IMG/VR virus record: IMGVR_UViG_2802429242_000007
Source: a virus
Taxonomy: Duplodnaviria > Heunggongvirae > Uroviricota > Caudoviricetes
Strand: one strand, 5' to 3'
Length of the DNA: 9,683 nucleotides
Positions 1,651 through 9,683 of this stretch are shown here, piece after piece; position 1 is the first letter of the stretch; each line of letters opens with the position of its first letter. Both the position numbers and the translations under genes were made by a program. The notes below the pieces were generated by a model. It worked only from the letters and a program-made list of their open reading frames with translations, was not told the DNA's origin and made no database searches.

Positions 1651-2436
1651 TTACTTGATAAATCCTGCTGCCTTTCCTCGCCTGTATTCCTCCATCAGCC
1701 ACTGCGCCGGTGTTATTCCCCCCAGGGTGGCGGCGTTAGGCATGCACCCGAAACTTCGCCCTGGTGGATGGTAAACATCTCTCCCTGTGTCCGGAGGCGT
1801 ACTCATGGGTTCTGGCTTTGCCTGTATGCTGATCACCGGATCGGGTATCTGCTGTCCGGAAGCCACCTTTTTCGCCCAATCATCGAGCAGCCTGCGCGCG
1901 TGTTTCTCAACCTCAATCTCGCTAAGCTGGCGCTGATACATTGCACGGCGGGTATCACATACGACCCAGTACATAACCGGATGCCGCCACGGGAATCTTT
2001 CGGGACCACCAGGATATAAACTTTTTTCCTTGCTGTACCGGTGAAACTCCGCCATCACATCGTCAATGGTGACGCCAAGAACCATCTTGCTGTCTTTACA
2101 CCACTTGATGAATTGCCCTGGCGACGGCCAGAACGGAGACTCACTGGCGCGGGCGTGGCGCATACCAGCAGAAACCTGTTCACGGGTTCGGATCCCCCCT
2201 TCGGCAAACGCAGCAATCCACTGCTGTTTTGCAGCAACTTCCTGCTCTGGCGTCTTCAGGTTGGTTACCACTGCCGCCGGAAAGAGTTGTTTCAGCTGTT
2301 TGAAAAGGGCATCAACAAGCCTCTCTGCTGACATGTTCACCACGTTGTCATTGTTGGTGTACTGATGCTCATAACCTGACATGCGAGAAAGGGCTTCTCC
2401 GTCACGGTTTTGTATCGCGGTAAAAACGTTGTTCAC
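1651..2436 (-). CDS. lambda P-like replication protein (helicase loader)
   Basis: Translation contains ...FPAAVVTNLKTPEQEVAAKQQWIAAFAEGGIRTREQVSAGMRHARASESPFWPSPGQFIKWCK..., closely matching the remembered conserved core of lambda P (FLPSPGQF..WC). Start preferred at GTG 2436..2434 (GTGA overlap with the O-like stop) with a perfect GGAGGA 6 nt upstream, rather than the track's ATG at 2451. Confidence 0.85.
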   Translation of the reverse strand: MNNVFTAIQNRDGEALSRMSGYEHQYTNNDNVVNMSAERLVDALFKQLKQLFPAAVVTNLKTPEQEVAAKQQWIAAFAEGGIRTREQVSAGMRHARASESPFWPSPGQFIKWCKDSKMVLGVTIDDVMAEFHRYSKEKSLYPGGPERFPWRHPVMYWVVCDTRRAMYQRQLSEIEVEKHARRLLDDWAKKVASGQQIPDPVISIQAKPEPMSTPPDTGRDVYHPPGRSFGCMPNAATLGGITPAQWLMEEYRRGKAAGFIK

Positions 2437-3248
2437 AAGAAATCCTCCCATGCTTCAGGGCTGTTCCAGTGCGGAACGTTGTTATCAGGTAATGTTGATT
2501 GCTTCTGTCTGCTAATCTGCAGCCGCCTTGCCAGCTTCTGCTCCCACTGTGCCTGATGGTATGCCTTACCCTCAGCCATCCAGTAAATTCTGAACTCTGC
2601 AAGTTCCTGTGCCGTTGGCAGACTGTCCAGGTAGATCCCCTGCAATGAGCTTTTCCGAAGAAAGTCATCTGATGGCTGCCATTGTTCATGCATGACAAAT
2701 TTGCCTAATTGCCCTGGCCCACCAGGAGGAACAAAGTTATTCATCACGGCGTTGTTTGCACCGGGGTCATGAGGCACAGAATCCCCGCTTTTTGTCCTGC
2801 TCTCCCTCTCTTGGTTAAATGACTGGTTATATGACTGGTTCTGGATCCCGTTTTTGGGATCATTCAACATCCCGTTTTTGGGATCATTCAACATCCCGTT
2901 TTTGGGTATATTCCCGTTTTCGGGAACATTGCCGTTTTCGGGTTCATTGCTCCCTTTCCGGTTGCCTTTAATGTTCCCGTTTTTGGTTATATTAAGAGAG
3001 AAAACCCGCACTCTTTTCGTCGCTCCCTTTCTCTCTCCGGTATCTGAAATAAGCCCCATTTTCATGAGCAATATAAGCCCGGCCTGCACGGTTTTTTTAT
3101 TCAGGCAAGTGTCTTTAACGAGGCGTTCTATGCTGGGGTAGCAGAGGTTATATTCATCGGCTCTGTCAGCCATCGAGAGCAGTATGAGCTTTAATGACGA
3201 GCTACCTGGATCTGTCTCCCAGGCCCAATCTGTTGCATGTCTGCTCAT
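2433..3248 (-). CDS. O-like replication initiator: N-terminal winged-HTH, Asn/Gly/Pro-rich repeat linker, C-terminal DnaT-like domain
   Basis: N-terminus WAWETDPGSSSLKLILLSMADRADEYNLCYPSIERLVKDTCLNKKTVQAGLILLMKMGLI resembles the replisome-organizer HTH; C-terminus ...MHEQWQPSDDFLRKSSLQGIYLDSLPTAQELAEFRIYWMAEGKAYHQAQWEQKLARRL resembles the DnaT C-terminal domain. ATG 3248..3246 with GGAG 7 nt upstream. The iteron array lies inside the gene, as ori-lambda lies inside O. Confidence 0.8.
   Translation of the reverse strand: MSRHATDWAWETDPGSSSLKLILLSMADRADEYNLCYPSIERLVKDTCLNKKTVQAGLILLMKMGLISDTGERKGATKRVRVFSLNITKNGNIKGNRKGSNEPENGNVPENGNIPKNGMLNDPKNGMLNDPKNGIQNQSYNQSFNQERESRTKSGDSVPHDPGANNAVMNNFVPPGGPGQLGKFVMHEQWQPSDDFLRKSSLQGIYLDSLPTAQELAEFRIYWMAEGKAYHQAQWEQKLARRLQISRQKQSTLPDNNVPHWNSPEAWEDFL
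2845..2990. repeat. iteron array (candidate origin of replication) inside the O-like gene
   Basis: 24-bp direct repeats start at 2845, 2869 and 2893 (the first two identical: atcccgtttttgggatcattcaac). Degenerate copies follow at 2912-2925 (TCCCGTTTTCGGGA, itself palindromic), 2931-2942 and 2975-2986. Core motif is CCCGTTTT(T/C)GGG. Confidence 0.75.
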
Positions 3249-3263
3249 GATTAATCTCCGCTA

Positions 3264-3464
3264 TCAGCTTGAATGTTGTGGGGAGGAATTAATCATGATC
3301 TGCTTAATCTCTGCCCTGATGCGACGGTTTGATTCCATGGTGCACTCAACACAGTGTCCGTTGTAAACCCAGCGTTCACTGTCATGTCCGTGCTTACATG
3401 GTTTTCCGGTGTAGTAGCGTTTAAGTCCGCGCTTTGCGGCATCAATACGTGTAATGATTTCCAT
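3264..3464 (-). CDS. small zinc-finger (Cys/His cluster) phage early protein, 66 aa
   Basis: MEIITRIDAAKRGLKRYYTGKPCKHGHDSERWVYNGHCVEC... carries a C-x-H-x-H...C-x2-C cluster. It sits between the Cro-like gene and the O-like gene, the position of cII in lambda. Start chosen at ATG 3464..3462; the track's TTG start at 3527 adds a hydrophobic low-complexity extension. Function not assigned. Confidence 0.5.
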   Translation of the reverse strand: MEIITRIDAAKRGLKRYYTGKPCKHGHDSERWVYNGHCVECTMESNRRIRAEIKQIMINSSPQHSS

Positions 3465-3544
3465 GGTAAGCCCTGTTATTAGTATTGGGATTACGGTTAT
3501 TTTGTGCTGACACAAAAAAAAGATCAACCATATTTGGTTTTTTA

Positions 3545-3614: not shown

Positions 3615-3845
3615 TCATGAGTAGAAGAAGTATGCCAGTTCTGCTTTTGAGCGCAGCCATTGTCTTGTTTTACAGGCTTTAAAAAGCCCATTCATCAATA
3701 CCTTACCTGGCATTTTGCGCTTACCTGTTAAGTGAGTCTGGATATAGTGACTCGTCGTTCCGGCTTCCTGTGCGAAGGCTTCACGCTCATCCGGAGTAAG
3801 TGCAAGCCAGTGCTTTTTGAAATCGAAATGTCCGTTATCGCTCAT
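3615..3845 (-). CDS. Cro/CII-like small HTH DNA-binding regulator, 76 aa
   Basis: First gene of the leftward operon, divergent from the repressor. An HTH-like segment (REAFAQEAGTTSHYIQTHLTGKRKMPGKVL) is visible. Functional role is inferred from position. Confidence 0.6.
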   Translation of the reverse strand: MSDNGHFDFKKHWLALTPDEREAFAQEAGTTSHYIQTHLTGKRKMPGKVLMNGLFKACKTRQWLRSKAELAYFFYS

Positions 3846-3870: not shown

Positions 3871-3944
3871 ATAATAAATATTCACCTATAAGGTAACAAA
3901 AATCAAGGATAGTTACCCACGAGGTGCATTTACCTGTTGGGTAA
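3871..3944. promoter_or_regulatory. divergent control region: three operator sites plus a leftward PR-like promoter
   Basis: Sites TcACC-tataa-GGTAA (3882-3896), TTACC-cacga-GGTgc (3913-3927) and TTACC-tgttg-GGTAA (3930-3944). Leftward promoter on the minus strand: -35 TTGTTA (3899..3894), 17-bp spacer, -10 TATTAT (3876..3871), overlapping the first site. A weaker rightward promoter may overlap the third site. Confidence 0.55.
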
Positions 3945-3999: not shown

Positions 4000-4584
4000 A
4001 TGAAAAGTATCCAGGACGTCCGCAGGCAAAATCTCAACGACTTGATCGACCGTGAATTCAATGGTGTTCAGACGCGGATGGCTGAAAAACTTGGAACTCA
4101 GGCAAATCTGGTAAACCGCTGGGCTCTTGGCAAGAAGGTTATCGGCGACCAGGTTGCACGAAAAATTGAAGCTGCCGCCAATAAACCCCGTAACTGGCTT
4201 GATATCGATCGCTCGCTTTCTCAGGAAGGTTTTCAGCCTGTCGGCCCAAGCGACATTGGCCAGCTGGCGGCTCACAACCTGGAACGCTGGATGAGCGAAA
4301 GCCGCGACCTTTCAACACAGGGAAAACTTCACCGCGCATCCGGCGTAGCCCAGGTGACAATCAGCCGCCTGTTAAACAATGAGGTCAGCGTTTCCATTTC
4401 CACCCTGGAGAATGTTGCATCCGCATTCGGGCGTCACGGCTATGAATTACTGATTCACCCGCACGACCCTGCGACCATCAACTATGATCGCTCGCGCTAC
4501 GCATTGTTACCCGAAACCGAGAAAGCAAAGATCGAAAGTTACATTGAATTTGTCATCAACCAGAACGAAAAAAACAAACAATAA
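4000..4584 (+). CDS. CI-like immunity repressor with two XRE-type HTH domains and no S24 peptidase domain, 194 aa
   Basis: Two HTH-like segments: QTRMAEKLGTQANLVNRWALGKKVIGDQVARKIEAAANKPRNWL and LSTQGKLHRASGVAQVTISRLLNNEVSVSISTLENVASAFGRHGYEL. No Ala-Gly/Ser...Lys autocleavage module is visible. Divergent from the Cro-like gene and flanked by operator clusters. Confidence 0.7.
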   Translation: MKSIQDVRRQNLNDLIDREFNGVQTRMAEKLGTQANLVNRWALGKKVIGDQVARKIEAAANKPRNWLDIDRSLSQEGFQPVGPSDIGQLAAHNLERWMSESRDLSTQGKLHRASGVAQVTISRLLNNEVSVSISTLENVASAFGRHGYELLIHPHDPATINYDRSRYALLPETEKAKIESYIEFVINQNEKNKQ

Positions 4585-4892: not shown

Positions 4893-5192
4893 ATGAACGT
4901 TAATCAGCAGAAAAATCTTCAAAAAATCATGCTGGCATTCGACAAGGACTACCGCCTGTCAGAACAGCTATATGACCGACAAGTTGAACTGATTGAGAGC
5001 ATCCGACTTCATCAACTGTCCTCAACTTTCGACGTTGTAACAGGCAAAGGCGTTCGTCAGGAAGTACTGGAGGCTGCTAAAGACAGCCCTGAGTTCGAAG
5101 AACTGATGGATGCCTATCGGCGAGAGGCAATGGCAATTATCGCCCGCTGGGATCTGGCTGATCAGCTTGATGGGCAGAGGGACGCGGCATGA
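4893..5192 (+). CDS. hypothetical phage early protein, 99 aa
   Basis: ATG 4893 with GGAGGG 6 nt upstream (the track's start at 4878 is less likely); stop overlaps the exonuclease ATG (ATGA at 5189-5192). Confidence 0.6.
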   Translation: MNVNQQKNLQKIMLAFDKDYRLSEQLYDRQVELIESIRLHQLSSTFDVVTGKGVRQEVLEAAKDSPEFEELMDAYRREAMAIIARWDLADQLDGQRDAA

Positions 5193-6010
5193 AACCGGGA
5201 ATTTATTTCGACATCAGCAACGAAGACTACCACGCCGGTGACGGCGTGAGTAAGTCGCAACTGGACATGGTTGCCAAGAATCCGGCGCTTCTTAAATGGG
5301 TTCAGGCAGCACCAGAAGACGAAGAGAAAAAGTCTGCACTGGATATGGGAACCGCATTGCACTGCCTGCTTCTGGAACCTGGAGAATTCGACAAACGCTT
5401 CATCGTTTCACCGAAATTCGATCGTCGGACGAAACAAGGTAAAGCTGACGAAGAGGCATTTCTTCGTGATGTGGCGGATATGGGGATTACGGTACTTGAT
5501 GCCGAGCAGTGGCGGAAACTGGAGCTGATGCGTGATAGCGCAATGGCTCACCCGGCGGCACGCTGGATGCTGGAAGCCCCTGGTTACTGCGAAGCATCAA
5601 TGTACTGGAACGATGAAGATACGGGTGAGTTGTGCCGCATTCGTCCAGACAAATGGCTGAACGAGCACAACGTGATCGTCGACGTGAAAAAGGTTGCAGA
5701 TATGGACCGTTTTGCACGCCACATCGAGGAATTCCGCTACCACGTGCAGGACGCAATGTACCGCGAAGGCGCAATGAGGGTTACTGGTCAGCCGCATGGT
5801 TTTTTCTTTCTTGCCGTGAGCGAAAGCATTGATTGTGGTCGATATCCGGTACGCGTGTTCGAGCTGGATGCGCCGGATGTCGATGCCGGGCACGCTCTGT
5901 TCCGCCGGGATCTGAATACCTATCACGAATGCCGCATCAACGATGAGTGGGGCGGAGTGGAAATTATTAAACGCCATGACTGGGCACGTAAACAGGATAT
6001 GTACGTATGA
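5189..6010 (+). CDS. PD-(D/E)XK exonuclease of the RecE (exodeoxyribonuclease VIII) C-terminal-domain type, 273 aa
   Basis: N-terminus MKPGIYFDISNEDYHAGDGVSKSQL and an internal D...VDVKK motif fit the RecE-type nuclease domain as I recall it; ATGA-coupled to the downstream annealing protein, as in recE-recT. Confidence 0.7.
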   Translation: MKPGIYFDISNEDYHAGDGVSKSQLDMVAKNPALLKWVQAAPEDEEKKSALDMGTALHCLLLEPGEFDKRFIVSPKFDRRTKQGKADEEAFLRDVADMGITVLDAEQWRKLELMRDSAMAHPAARWMLEAPGYCEASMYWNDEDTGELCRIRPDKWLNEHNVIVDVKKVADMDRFARHIEEFRYHVQDAMYREGAMRVTGQPHGFFFLAVSESIDCGRYPVRVFELDAPDVDAGHALFRRDLNTYHECRINDEWGGVEIIKRHDWARKQDMYV

Positions 6011-6888
6011 GCAATGATATCGCAATCACATCACAACCAGGCGCAACTGTAGGTACTGCTGCGGCAATCTTCAGCCCGGAGGGCATGAATCAACTGGTGC
6101 GTTTCGCGGAGTTGATGTCACAAAGCAAAGCGACTGTACCGAAACATCTTGAAGGCAAACCTGCCGATTGTCTGGCGGTGACCATGCAGGCGGCACAGTG
6201 GGGAATGAACCCTTTCGCCGTGGCGCAGAAAACGCATGTGGTAAACGGAACGTTAGGCTACGAAGCACAGTTGGTAAACGCGGTCGTATCCTCTTCCAGC
6301 CTGCTAGCGACACGCCTGAATTATCGCTGGAGCGGTGACTGGTCGAATGTTAACGGCAAAACAGATAAATCACCGAATCTGACGGTAACTGTGTCAGCAG
6401 TTCTTAAAGGAGAAGCAGAACCCCGTGAGCTTACCATCAGTATGGCGCAAGCCGGAGTGCGTAACTCTCCATTGTGGGAACAGGATCCGCGCCAGCAACT
6501 TGCCTATCTTTGCACGAAACGATGGGCTCGCCTGCACGCTCCTGATGTACTTCTCGGTGTTTACACCCCAGACGAATTACAGGAAACGGCACCGCGCGTT
6601 GAGCGAGACATTACTCCGCAAACGACTACTGCTGCGGGAATGAACAGTCTGATCAACGCTAAACCAGCGAAAAAGCATGATGAGCAAACGCGTAAAGCGG
6701 ATAGCCGTGATCCAGAAGAAATGCTGATGGCCTTTACCAGCGCAGCGATGAATTACAGCACTGTCTCCGAACTGGATAAGGCTTACAAATACATTGCACA
6801 AAAACTTTCAGATGATGACGAACTGCTGGCAAAAGCCACCGACGTTTACAGCGTTCGTCGGGAAGAATTAAACGAAACATCTATGTAA
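6007..6888 (+). CDS. RecT/Red-beta family single-strand annealing protein, 293 aa
   Basis: Core ...CLAVTMQAAQWGMNPFAVAQKTHVVNG... resembles the RecT/Bet conserved region, and an ERDITP motif is shared with my recollection of lambda Bet. Sits immediately after the exonuclease with an ATGA overlap. Confidence 0.75.
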   Translation: MSNDIAITSQPGATVGTAAAIFSPEGMNQLVRFAELMSQSKATVPKHLEGKPADCLAVTMQAAQWGMNPFAVAQKTHVVNGTLGYEAQLVNAVVSSSSLLATRLNYRWSGDWSNVNGKTDKSPNLTVTVSAVLKGEAEPRELTISMAQAGVRNSPLWEQDPRQQLAYLCTKRWARLHAPDVLLGVYTPDELQETAPRVERDITPQTTTAAGMNSLINAKPAKKHDEQTRKADSRDPEEMLMAFTSAAMNYSTVSELDKAYKYIAQKLSDDDELLAKATDVYSVRREELNETSM

Positions 6889-8432: not shown

Positions 8433-9683
8433 TTATTCCCCCGCCATCCACTTCTCAAACTTCGACGGGGAGAACGGAATCAGATCCGTATGCTCCCCGT
8501 CAATCCATGAATCAATCATATCGGCCCACTGCTGCAACATGTAGGCGCGCTGTCTGGCGTATTCCGCTTTGTTATATACGGCGCGCACACCTTTCTGCTC
8601 ATGTGCCAGAGCCTTTTCAATCCAGTCTGAAGGATAACCAGCCTCATGCAACAACGTACTGGCTGTACGGCGCATATCATGTACAGTGAAGTCCTGAATA
8701 TGCTCACCATCTTCATTTATTATTTTCACCGTTCTGTCGATCAGAGAGTTCAGCGCGGCATTAGATAATGGCTTCCGGAAATTGTAACGACCAGGAACCA
8801 GATATTCACTTCCACCAGCGCACATCTGCAACCCGACCAATATATCCTGTGCCTGTTTAGGCAGGTAAATAACGTGCGCCCGGCTTCCCTTCATGCGGTC
8901 TGGAGGAATTGTCCATGTCCATTTTTTAAAATCTATTTCATCCCACGTTGCATTGGTGAATTCGCCCTTACGAACCATAGTGATAAGCACCAGTTTTAAA
9001 GCCATTTTCATAGTGCCCATAGCACCAATGGCATCCAGCGTGCGGAAGAACAGGCCAATTTCTTCTGGTGTCAGTGTTCGCTCTCGTGGTTTAAATATGG
9101 CGATAGACGAAGGTTTAATGTCAGCCGCAGGATTAAACAAACCATGACCACGGTCATTGGCGTGACGGTATACGCTACTGATGATCTCCCTGGCCTGCAC
9201 TGCTGTTGCCCGGCCACCGCGTTCGACAATCCGGTCACACAAATCACGAACCATCGATGTGGTAATTTCAGCCATCATTTTATTGCCAAGAGCCGGAAGT
9301 ATGTCACGGTCGATCACCGCCTGTTTCATTGCGCGGGTACTGTCAGCCAGGATGACGTGTTTCATATAACTGTCGGTATGTACCGCAAACGTCTCGGCAC
9401 CACGAATCTTTTTGATACCGTCACGTTTAGCCGCAGCCGGTGACTGGCCTGCTTTAAGCAGCTTCTTTGCAGCAATCAGTTCTTCTCGCGCTTCTGCCAG
9501 GCTGATACCGTCACGCCCATACTGCCCGATTACCAGTGTTTCGCGGCGACCGTTGATACGGTAGTCATAGCGAAACGAGACCGTGCCTGACGTAAGCACA
9601 GCTACATACAGCCCGTCACGATCGGAGACCTTGTACAGTTTGTCCTGCGGCTTGAGGTTTTTTAATTTTGTATCGGTAAGCAC
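8433..9683 (-). CDS. int: tyrosine site-specific integrase, P4-like family; 5' end at or just beyond the window edge
   Basis: 416 codons; N-terminal arm-binding-type sequence (LTDTKLKNLKPQDKLYKVSDRDGLYVAV) and a C-terminal catalytic region with the H-x-x-R box (HDMRRTASTLL) and a Tyr-containing tail (VYNKAEYARQRAYMLQQWADMID). The first in-window codon is GTG at 9683, so the true start may lie 1-3 codons outside. Confidence 0.9.
   Translation of the reverse strand: MLTDTKLKNLKPQDKLYKVSDRDGLYVAVLTSGTVSFRYDYRINGRRETLVIGQYGRDGISLAEAREELIAAKKLLKAGQSPAAAKRDGIKKIRGAETFAVHTDSYMKHVILADSTRAMKQAVIDRDILPALGNKMMAEITTSMVRDLCDRIVERGGRATAVQAREIISSVYRHANDRGHGLFNPAADIKPSSIAIFKPRERTLTPEEIGLFFRTLDAIGAMGTMKMALKLVLITMVRKGEFTNATWDEIDFKKWTWTIPPDRMKGSRAHVIYLPKQAQDILVGLQMCAGGSEYLVPGRYNFRKPLSNAALNSLIDRTVKIINEDGEHIQDFTVHDMRRTASTLLHEAGYPSDWIEKALAHEQKGVRAVYNKAEYARQRAYMLQQWADMIDSWIDGEHTDLIPFSPSKFEKWMAGE

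Follow-up and report, generated by a model that had tools for sequence, protein, structure and literature searches.

In phages lambda and P22, the replication origin lies inside the initiator gene (gene O and gene 18, respectively; the P22 record annotates a rep_origin in gene 18), straight after the region encoding the N-terminal winged-helix DNA-binding domain. Both origins contain several palindromic iterons, each some 16-19 bp long, whose core (ATCCC..AAAAC..GGGA) is similar to the one described below, and both have a strand-asymmetric element on the downstream side, which in ori-lambda is the opening region, a purine-rich A+T region (PMC5043065). The number of iterons is four in lambda and six in Stx phages (PMC7466680). 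The gene for the helicase loader P comes next in lambda, and P22 has a DnaB-type helicase gene downstream. Another close system is the DopC/DopE pair of Cellvibrionales and Oceanospirillales, in which a protein with HTH_36 and DnaT C-terminal domains is followed by a lambda-P-like protein; both genes are domesticated and reside in the chromosome, and the study describing them detected no iterons in dopC (Brezellec et al. 2017, PMC5509034). Here we analyzed a stretch of 9,683 nucleotides from a Caudoviricetes virus (IMG/VR record IMGVR_UViG_2802429242_000007), hereafter called the window, in which an O-like initiator gene has the identical two-gene layout but also a full array of iterons. An original prediction, made from the sequence alone, had proposed an iteron-type origin within this gene. 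Our comparisons suggest that the array, together with an element adjacent to it, is quite likely a phage theta-type replication origin resembling ori-lambda.

The features of the proposed origin and of the two genes around it are as follows.

2433-3248, minus strand: coding sequence of the O-like replication initiator, 271 amino acids (open reading frame; Pfam HTH_36 and DnaT; phrog_1032)
2994-3248, minus strand: N-terminal HTH_36 winged-helix domain, amino acids 1-85, the presumed iteron-binding domain (Pfam)
2974-2990, minus strand: iteron 1, coding-strand core ACCAAAAACGGG, one mismatch; promoter-proximal and distal to the putative unwinding element
2929-2945, minus strand: iteron 2, core CCCGAAAACGGC, one mismatch
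2911-2927, minus strand: iteron 3, core CCCGAAAACGGG
2893-2909, minus strand: iteron 4, core CCCAAAAACGGG
2869-2885, minus strand: iteron 5, ATCCCAAAAACGGGAT, within a perfect 24-bp unit
2845-2861, minus strand: iteron 6, ATCCCAAAAACGGGAT, within a perfect 24-bp unit and adjoining the 12-mer element
2808-2843, minus strand: three tandem 12-nt units, CAGAACCAGTCA, TATAACCAGTCA and TTTAACCAAGAG, directly after the last iteron in the coding direction (Tandem Repeats Finder, TRF, period 12)
2782-2816, minus strand: strand-asymmetric tract, 30 of 35 positions purines (86%) on the coding strand, overlapping the third 12-mer
2454-2711, minus strand: DnaT-C-terminal-like domain, amino acids 180-265 (Pfam DnaT; alignment to E. 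coli DnaT)
1651-2451, minus strand: coding sequence of the lambda-P-like helicase loader (Pfam Phage_lambda_P, E 1.5e-56; phrog_109 'P-like helicase loader', E 2e-92)

A repeat search and TRF placed the iteron copies at 2845, 2869, 2893, 2911, 2929 and 2974 (array 2845-2990), at spacings of 24, 24, 18, 18 and 45 bp. Each copy has the dyad symmetry ATCCC-N6-GGGAT, and the copies at 2845 and 2869 are identical 24-mers, ATCCCGTTTTTGGGATCATTCAAC. The palindromic core CCCGTTTTYGGG, allowing at most two mismatches, matched the window seven times, six of these inside the array; shuffled windows gave a mean of 1.35 matches, and 0 of 200 shuffles reached seven. The match outside the array, at 4510-4521 in the repressor gene, was considered as an extra iteron and rejected, since it has two mismatches and falls within the chance expectation. 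The array is the sole multi-copy repeat cluster in the 9.7-kb window, and nothing else there is repeated more than twice. Thus, the repeats proposed originally are real, including the identical 24-mers, but of the three or four 18-bp-spaced copies that were described only two exist, and the sixth copy follows at a spacing of 45 bp. The resulting gap, which separates iterons 1 and 2, contains at most a very degenerate copy at about 2947-2961 (CCCTTTCCGG), which encodes the most variable residues of the protein linker among close relatives (GNRKGS, GNREGG, GNLEGC). Terminator-like hairpins followed by T5 occur at 2855-2874 and 2879-2898 of the plus strand (antisense to the initiator gene), each built from the right arm of an iteron and the left arm of its neighbour; they probably arise as a side effect of the palindromic arms.

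The window is the early region of a phiV10-type (Uetakevirus) E. coli prophage. Its 816-bp initiator gene is 96.7-98.9% identical to those of phages EC.W1-9, phiv142-3, PAS61 and phiV10, and is present in 424 of 5426 complete E. coli genomes (~8%). In the complete phiV10 genome, all six core matches (at most one mismatch; 0.25 expected) fall at 33684-33824, a span of 141 bp in gene p43.

The protein encoded by this gene matches the PHROG family phrog_1032, 'replication initiation protein' (E 8e-108), and its RefSeq name is likewise replication initiation protein. The iterons cover amino acids 86-135, between the Pfam HTH_36 (amino acids 18-67, E 3.7e-10) and Pfam DnaT (amino acids 184-252, E 1.1e-15) matches. 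The HTH_36 domain carries the conserved DTGERKG wing of phrog_1032-type O-like initiators, and amino acids 180-265 align with residues 85-170 of E. coli DnaT (E 7e-21; PDB DnaT chains 9zbt and 4ou6, E about 1e-20). The coding-strand translation of the array contains ...EPENGNVPENGNIPKNGMLNDPKNGMLNDPKNG..., an Asn/Gly/Pro-rich interdomain linker in which all iteron copies share one reading frame. A 20-bp near-palindrome, ATTGTTCATGCATGACAAAT, occurs at 2681-2700, where the start of the DnaT-like domain is encoded.

We then compared these features with those of lambda and P22. The lambda iterons, ATCCCTCAAAACGAGGGA on the coding strand, follow the Phage_rep_O domain; the window iteron ATCCCAAAAACGGGAT shares these arms and the A-tract but has a spacer shorter by 3 bp. 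The proteins themselves are much further apart. A BLASTP comparison of the initiator with lambda O and P22 gp18 found no significant similarity, and hhalign gave only a weak link to their N-terminal domain, in an alignment of the recognition helix and wing (probability 52%, E 1.4e-4). With HHpred, Brezellec et al. (PMC5509034) had linked the N-terminus of lambda O to HTH_36. Unlike lambda O, the window protein has an HTH_36 N-terminal domain without a Pfam match to Phage_rep_O, and its C-terminal domain is DnaT-like instead of the Phg_2220_C domain assigned to lambda O by HHpred (PMC5509034). The window also differs from lambda in that its downstream element is made up of GAAYC 12-mers and is not A+T-rich, and in that its iteron spacings are multiples of three, so that the protein is repetitive too.

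Next, we investigated whether the array is found in other phages with this type of N-terminal domain. N-terminal domains only 37-57% identical to that of the window protein were found in PPompW, Edwardsiella Edno5 and EPP-1, Vibrio Her, Acinetobacter AP22 and Ab105-2phi, Burkholderia Bcep176, an EBPR podovirus and Pseudomonas PseuP_224. In all of them, three to six repeats lie straight after the N-domain coding region, and most of the arrays share a related core, (T/A)CCC(A/G)AAA(A/T)(C/T)GGGA. For a broader survey, we collected 80 species-representative genomes by an N-domain profile search of genome contigs, which gave 77 usable loci, and defined an array as at least three copies of an 11-mer (at most one mismatch) in the 300 bp after the N-domain. 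Arrays were present in 64 of the 77 loci (N-domains 40-86% identical), compared with 5 of 458 control windows from the same loci. The genomes surveyed span Enterobacterales, Vibrio, Pseudoalteromonas, Marinomonas, Acinetobacter, Desulfovibrio, Burkholderiales and Sphingomonadales, and ten phage lineages carry the array. In two of the phages, EBPR podovirus 1 (1501-2376) and PseuP_224 (1501-2202), the annotated coding sequence starts 3' of the iteron array, at 1663 and 1972, respectively, so that neither the HTH_36 domain nor the repeats are annotated and what is left carries the name 'hypothetical' or 'primosomal protein I'.

The spacings in these relatives are often 17, 22, 25, 26 or 33 bp, and the motif is thereby read in all three frames. 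For example, the first copy is translated as TQKR or PKTE in PPompW, Edno5 and Her, and later copies as PKNG, PKIG or PENG. Given that the frames vary and that spacings not divisible by three occur, this result indicates that the motif is conserved as DNA and not as protein. The arms differ by lineage (TCCC/GGGA, GTCCC/GGGAC, GTACC/GGTAC, CCCCC/GGGGG), and PseuP_224 has an unrelated iteron, CCCCGCAGGAGCTGC; such changes are expected if the sites co-evolve with the N-terminal domain. Natural controls are provided by Salmonella SPN1S (epsilon15-like), Enterobacter Tyrion and Klebsiella ST512-KPC3phi13.3, which have the same DnaT-like C-terminal domain with unrelated, non-HTH_36 N-terminal domains. 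No repeat array was found in the initiator genes of these three phages. In these comparisons, the repeats go with the HTH_36 domain, and not with the C-terminal domain, the linker or the phage backbone.

We also compared iteron number across related prophages, as the original prediction had suggested. A scan of viral contigs yielded relatives that are 98-99% identical only, which served to follow variation in unit number but could not be used for deep comparison. Among proteins at least 95% identical, the linker gains or loses whole 24-bp (PKNGMLND) and 18-bp (PENGNV/I) units, with totals of 5-11, a variation of the kind seen between lambda and Stx phages, and the window has the commonest unit form among its close relatives. 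Since the window units are 18 and 24 bp long, expansions stay in frame and the linker protein becomes repetitive; in the more distant relatives the linker is not repetitive at all. The idea that the DNA is under dual constraint, as origin and as linker sequence, therefore needs to be qualified. The same DNA does encode the linker, but the constraint is lopsided, because the DNA motif is conserved while the linker varies in length and sequence.

The second part of the proposed origin, the three 12-nt units at 2808-2843, lies outside the region originally described and is new here. All 37 lineages inspected have the anchor CRGAAYCWNYCA straight after the last iteron. It is read in frame 0 in 28 lineages, in frame 1 in eight and in frame 2 in one, and is translated as QNQS, RTV, GTD, RNP or PES. 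Because it occurs in all three frames, it is conserved as DNA. After the anchor, there are usually two or three more GAAYC units at intervals of 11-13 nt (modal 12-13), often followed by an A-run; phiV10 has one extra 12-nt unit compared with the window. The anchor is kept in PseuP_224 despite its unrelated iterons. A strict GAAC-N5-9-GAAC pattern had proved too narrow, matching 15 of 75 loci, though it was enriched at the expected position, and it was replaced by direct inspection with the anchor CRGAAYC. In the EPP-1 subgroup, the 12-mers are followed by a CCCCC..GGGGG palindrome like one in the P22 origin. The annotated P22 origin itself contains CCGAATCAGTCA right after the last iteron (about 2905-2920 of the P22 stretch), identical to CRGAAYCWNYCA at 11 of 12 positions, although the N-terminal domain of gp18 is Phage_rep_O; this match overlaps an iteron arm and could therefore be due to chance.

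A clear A+T-rich unwinding region was also sought by base composition, and none was found. Nearest-neighbour duplex stability therefore replaced GC composition for locating the opening region. Duplex stability reaches a local minimum at the 12-mer element in most lineages, and in the window this element is the second least stable 30-mer of the gene (z 2.1). By analogy with lambda and P22, whose A-rich, strand-asymmetric opening region occupies this position, the 12-mer element and the purine tract are probably the DNA-unwinding or helicase-entry element.

Taken as an origin, the locus is ordinary in its arrangement, and the two-part origin is common to a large, poorly annotated family of phage initiators. 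We base the origin reading on an array that occurs at a conserved position throughout the family in all three frames, is unique in the phiV10 genome, is tied to the HTH_36 N-terminal domain and resembles the lambda iterons; the decisive point is its family-wide presence. In addition, the array directly follows the DNA-binding domain of a replication initiation protein, and a P-like loader gene comes next. The original proposal of an iteron-type origin in the O-like gene is thereby strengthened.

Several observations weigh against this reading. The 12-mer element is not the least stable stretch of the gene. The GC content at 2780-2860 is 0.42-0.48, so that the flank is not clearly A+T-rich, and the lowest GC content (0.35) is found at 2960-3019, on the other, promoter-proximal side of the array. 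As all copies in the window share one reading frame, the argument for conservation at the DNA level rests on the relatives. Proline is encoded by CCC in 5 of 5 cases within the repeats, versus 5 of 31 elsewhere, but this bias is weak support for DNA-level constraint because the repeat copies are not independent. An AlphaFold2 model built from a shallow alignment had a mean pLDDT (predicted local distance difference test score) of 36, too poor to confirm the layout of two domains and a linker. Moreover, the phiV10 GenBank record annotates no origin, and our literature searches returned nothing specific on an origin in phiV10 or epsilon15, or on iterons with HTH_36 initiators.

We considered three other explanations for the repeats. 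The best of them, which we nevertheless regard as unlikely, is that they are initiator sites serving mainly for control, either by autoregulation of the initiator gene and the P-like gene or by handcuffing, with opening and helicase loading elsewhere. Plasmid iterons are described in two reviews (PMC4980987, PMC6090056) as having control functions as well, the array sits inside a transcription unit that it could block, and the composition of the flank would fit. However, the conserved 12-mer and asymmetric element always adjoins the array, as the opening region does in lambda and P22, and neither the window nor the phiV10 genome contains a second array. A role in control would also be compatible with one as an origin. 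It is less probable still that the repeats are a slippage-prone, low-complexity linker under protein-level selection only, their DNA similarity being a by-product without a DNA function. This would account for the window units being all in frame and encoding xNG motifs, for a unit number that varies freely among close relatives and for a linker region in which 77% of the residues are N, G, P, Q, S, E, K, D or T. It does not account for relatives that have the same DNA motif in other frames at spacings not divisible by three, for a motif that is palindromic and lambda-like, or for its disappearance where the N-terminal domain is replaced though a linker is still needed. Equally improbable are sites for another protein (a host factor, the phage repressor or Cro) or another process (recombination or packaging), since the two-mismatch copy in the repressor gene that might suggest them is within the chance expectation of 1.35, while the motif varies with the N-domain lineage and not with the host, and the array accompanies the initiator gene in phages whose backbones are unrelated.

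If the array and its adjacent element are an origin, how might it work? From the lambda paradigm and the structures of DnaT, we infer the following scheme. Dimers of the N-terminal winged-helix domain would occupy the six palindromic iterons (2845-2990), bending or wrapping the DNA, and the resulting stress would open the adjacent three GAAYC-type 12-nt units and the purine-rich tract (about 2782-2843). The clustered DnaT-like C-terminal domains might then hold the exposed single strand, dock the P-like protein, or both, and P would bring host DnaB to the opened region. Rightward early transcription would pass through the origin and may contribute to its activity. Because it lies in a coding region, the same DNA also specifies the flexible Asn/Gly/Pro-rich linker between the domains, and gain or loss of a whole 18- or 24-bp unit leaves the reading frame intact.

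The original prediction had also taken the DnaT-like C-terminus to suggest a route of helicase loading different from that of lambda. This was not supported, because the pairing of an HTH_36 and DnaT-C protein with P has been published for DopC/DopE (PMC5509034), and P pairs with either type of C-terminal domain. In EPP-1, a P-like protein is found with a lambda-type C-terminal domain (Phg_2220_C) behind the same type of N-terminal domain, and in Acinetobacter phages the HTH_36 domain is paired with DnaB-type helicases. Such mixed pairings suggest that the C-terminal domain is an exchangeable adaptor. The data fit normal delivery of DnaB by P, with the DnaT-like domain as a partner or a module holding single-stranded DNA. 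Thus, the pairing itself was already known, and it is the 12-mer element after the last iteron that is new. The integrase, repressor and RecT genes and the synteny with phiV10 mark the window as a prophage locus rather than a resident chromosomal one such as DopC/DopE, and it looks like the mobile, origin-bearing form of the DopCE architecture.

Two observations bear on a physical link between the initiator and P. One PHROG profile, phrog_15931 (482 positions, function not known), matches the initiator's DnaT-like domain with its positions 200-268 and the P-like protein with its positions 354-452, which suggests that some phages fuse the two. In addition, the C-terminal tail VPHWNSPEAWEDFL (2433-2477, amino acids 257-271) is common to the Tyrion and Klebsiella phage initiators, both with a P gene next, and is not in the initiator of SPN1S, which is without a P gene; the tail is thus a candidate peptide for docking of P.

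E. coli DnaT, primosomal protein I, likewise has a C-terminal domain that binds single-stranded DNA, and this domain forms helical filaments on single-stranded DNA that mark the helicase-loading site (PMC13377028). Unlike DnaT, the window initiator has neither the DnaT N-terminal oligomerisation domain nor a PriA/PriB context, and its DnaT-like domain is fused to a predicted sequence-specific binding domain for double-stranded DNA. The database name 'primosomal protein I' is thus a misnomer for it. Iteron plasmids such as RK2, F and pPS10, which have winged-helix Rep proteins, also combine an array of initiator sites with short tandem repeats, in their case the 13-mers of the unwinding element, and their Rep proteins bind both the double-stranded iterons and one strand of the unwinding element (PMC10602881, PMC5043065). 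However, plasmid iterons are intergenic and bound by monomers, usually with DnaA boxes present, whereas those of the window are intragenic and palindromic.

HTH_36-type O-like initiators occur in phages and prophages of Gamma-, Beta-, Alpha- and Deltaproteobacteria. We tentatively speculate, while regarding it as rather doubtful, that they share one ancient module, in which lineage-specific palindromic iterons are combined with a nearly invariant triplet of CRGAAYCWNYCA 12-mers. In this speculation, the triplet would be a sequence-specific signal for single-strand capture or helicase entry, and in the phiV10 type the iterons would bring the DnaT-like domains together, so that these assemble into a filament on the captured strand. 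The triplet would then have been kept where the iterons (PseuP_224), the C-terminal domain, or the helicase or loader were exchanged, and the copy after the last P22 iteron would belong to the same module. If this is true, the window protein would be the origin-specific counterpart of the DnaT restart filament.

The analysis provides a concrete candidate origin (about 2780-2990) for phiV10 and the Uetakevirus prophages. Phage phiV10 serves as a reporter phage for the detection of E. coli O157:H7. The signature of iterons and GAAYC 12-mers after HTH_36 could serve for annotating the origins of many prophages that now have their initiators mislabelled 'primosomal protein I' or 'helix-turn-helix protein'. 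It also supplies an origin-bearing phage counterpart for the domesticated DopC/DopE pair, and a system in which a DnaT C-terminal domain is tethered to a predicted sequence-specific origin binder, which may help to test how such domains mark helicase-loading sites.

The remaining features of the window, in which the gene order is the same as in phiV10, are listed below.

8433-9683, minus strand: integrase (gene order as in phiV10)
next to the integrase in gene order: MT-A70 methylase, then PerC-like and AlpA-like genes
6007-6888: RecT
5189-6010: PDDEXK (DUF3799) nuclease
4000-4584: repressor
3871-3899, minus strand: candidate pR-like promoter
3615-3845, minus strand: cro-like repressor
3264-3527, minus strand: small open reading frame next to the initiator gene
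after the P-like loader in gene order: DUF1064 gene

The promoter candidate would drive the cro-like, orf87, O-like and P-like genes through the origin, and its position fits the phiV10 gene order. However, it has 9 of 12 consensus matches in the consensus scan, which is not above shuffle expectation, and the assignment is weak. An Rfam scan of the window detected no RNA family. The coding sequence of the P-like loader overlaps the end of the initiator gene; in phiV10 the loader start is annotated 15 nt further in, overlapping the initiator stop codon. Finally, the nuclease (5189-6010) and RecT (6007-6888) are two overlapping open reading frames in the window, where the phiV10 record has a single 1761-bp coding sequence for a RecE-RecT fusion.

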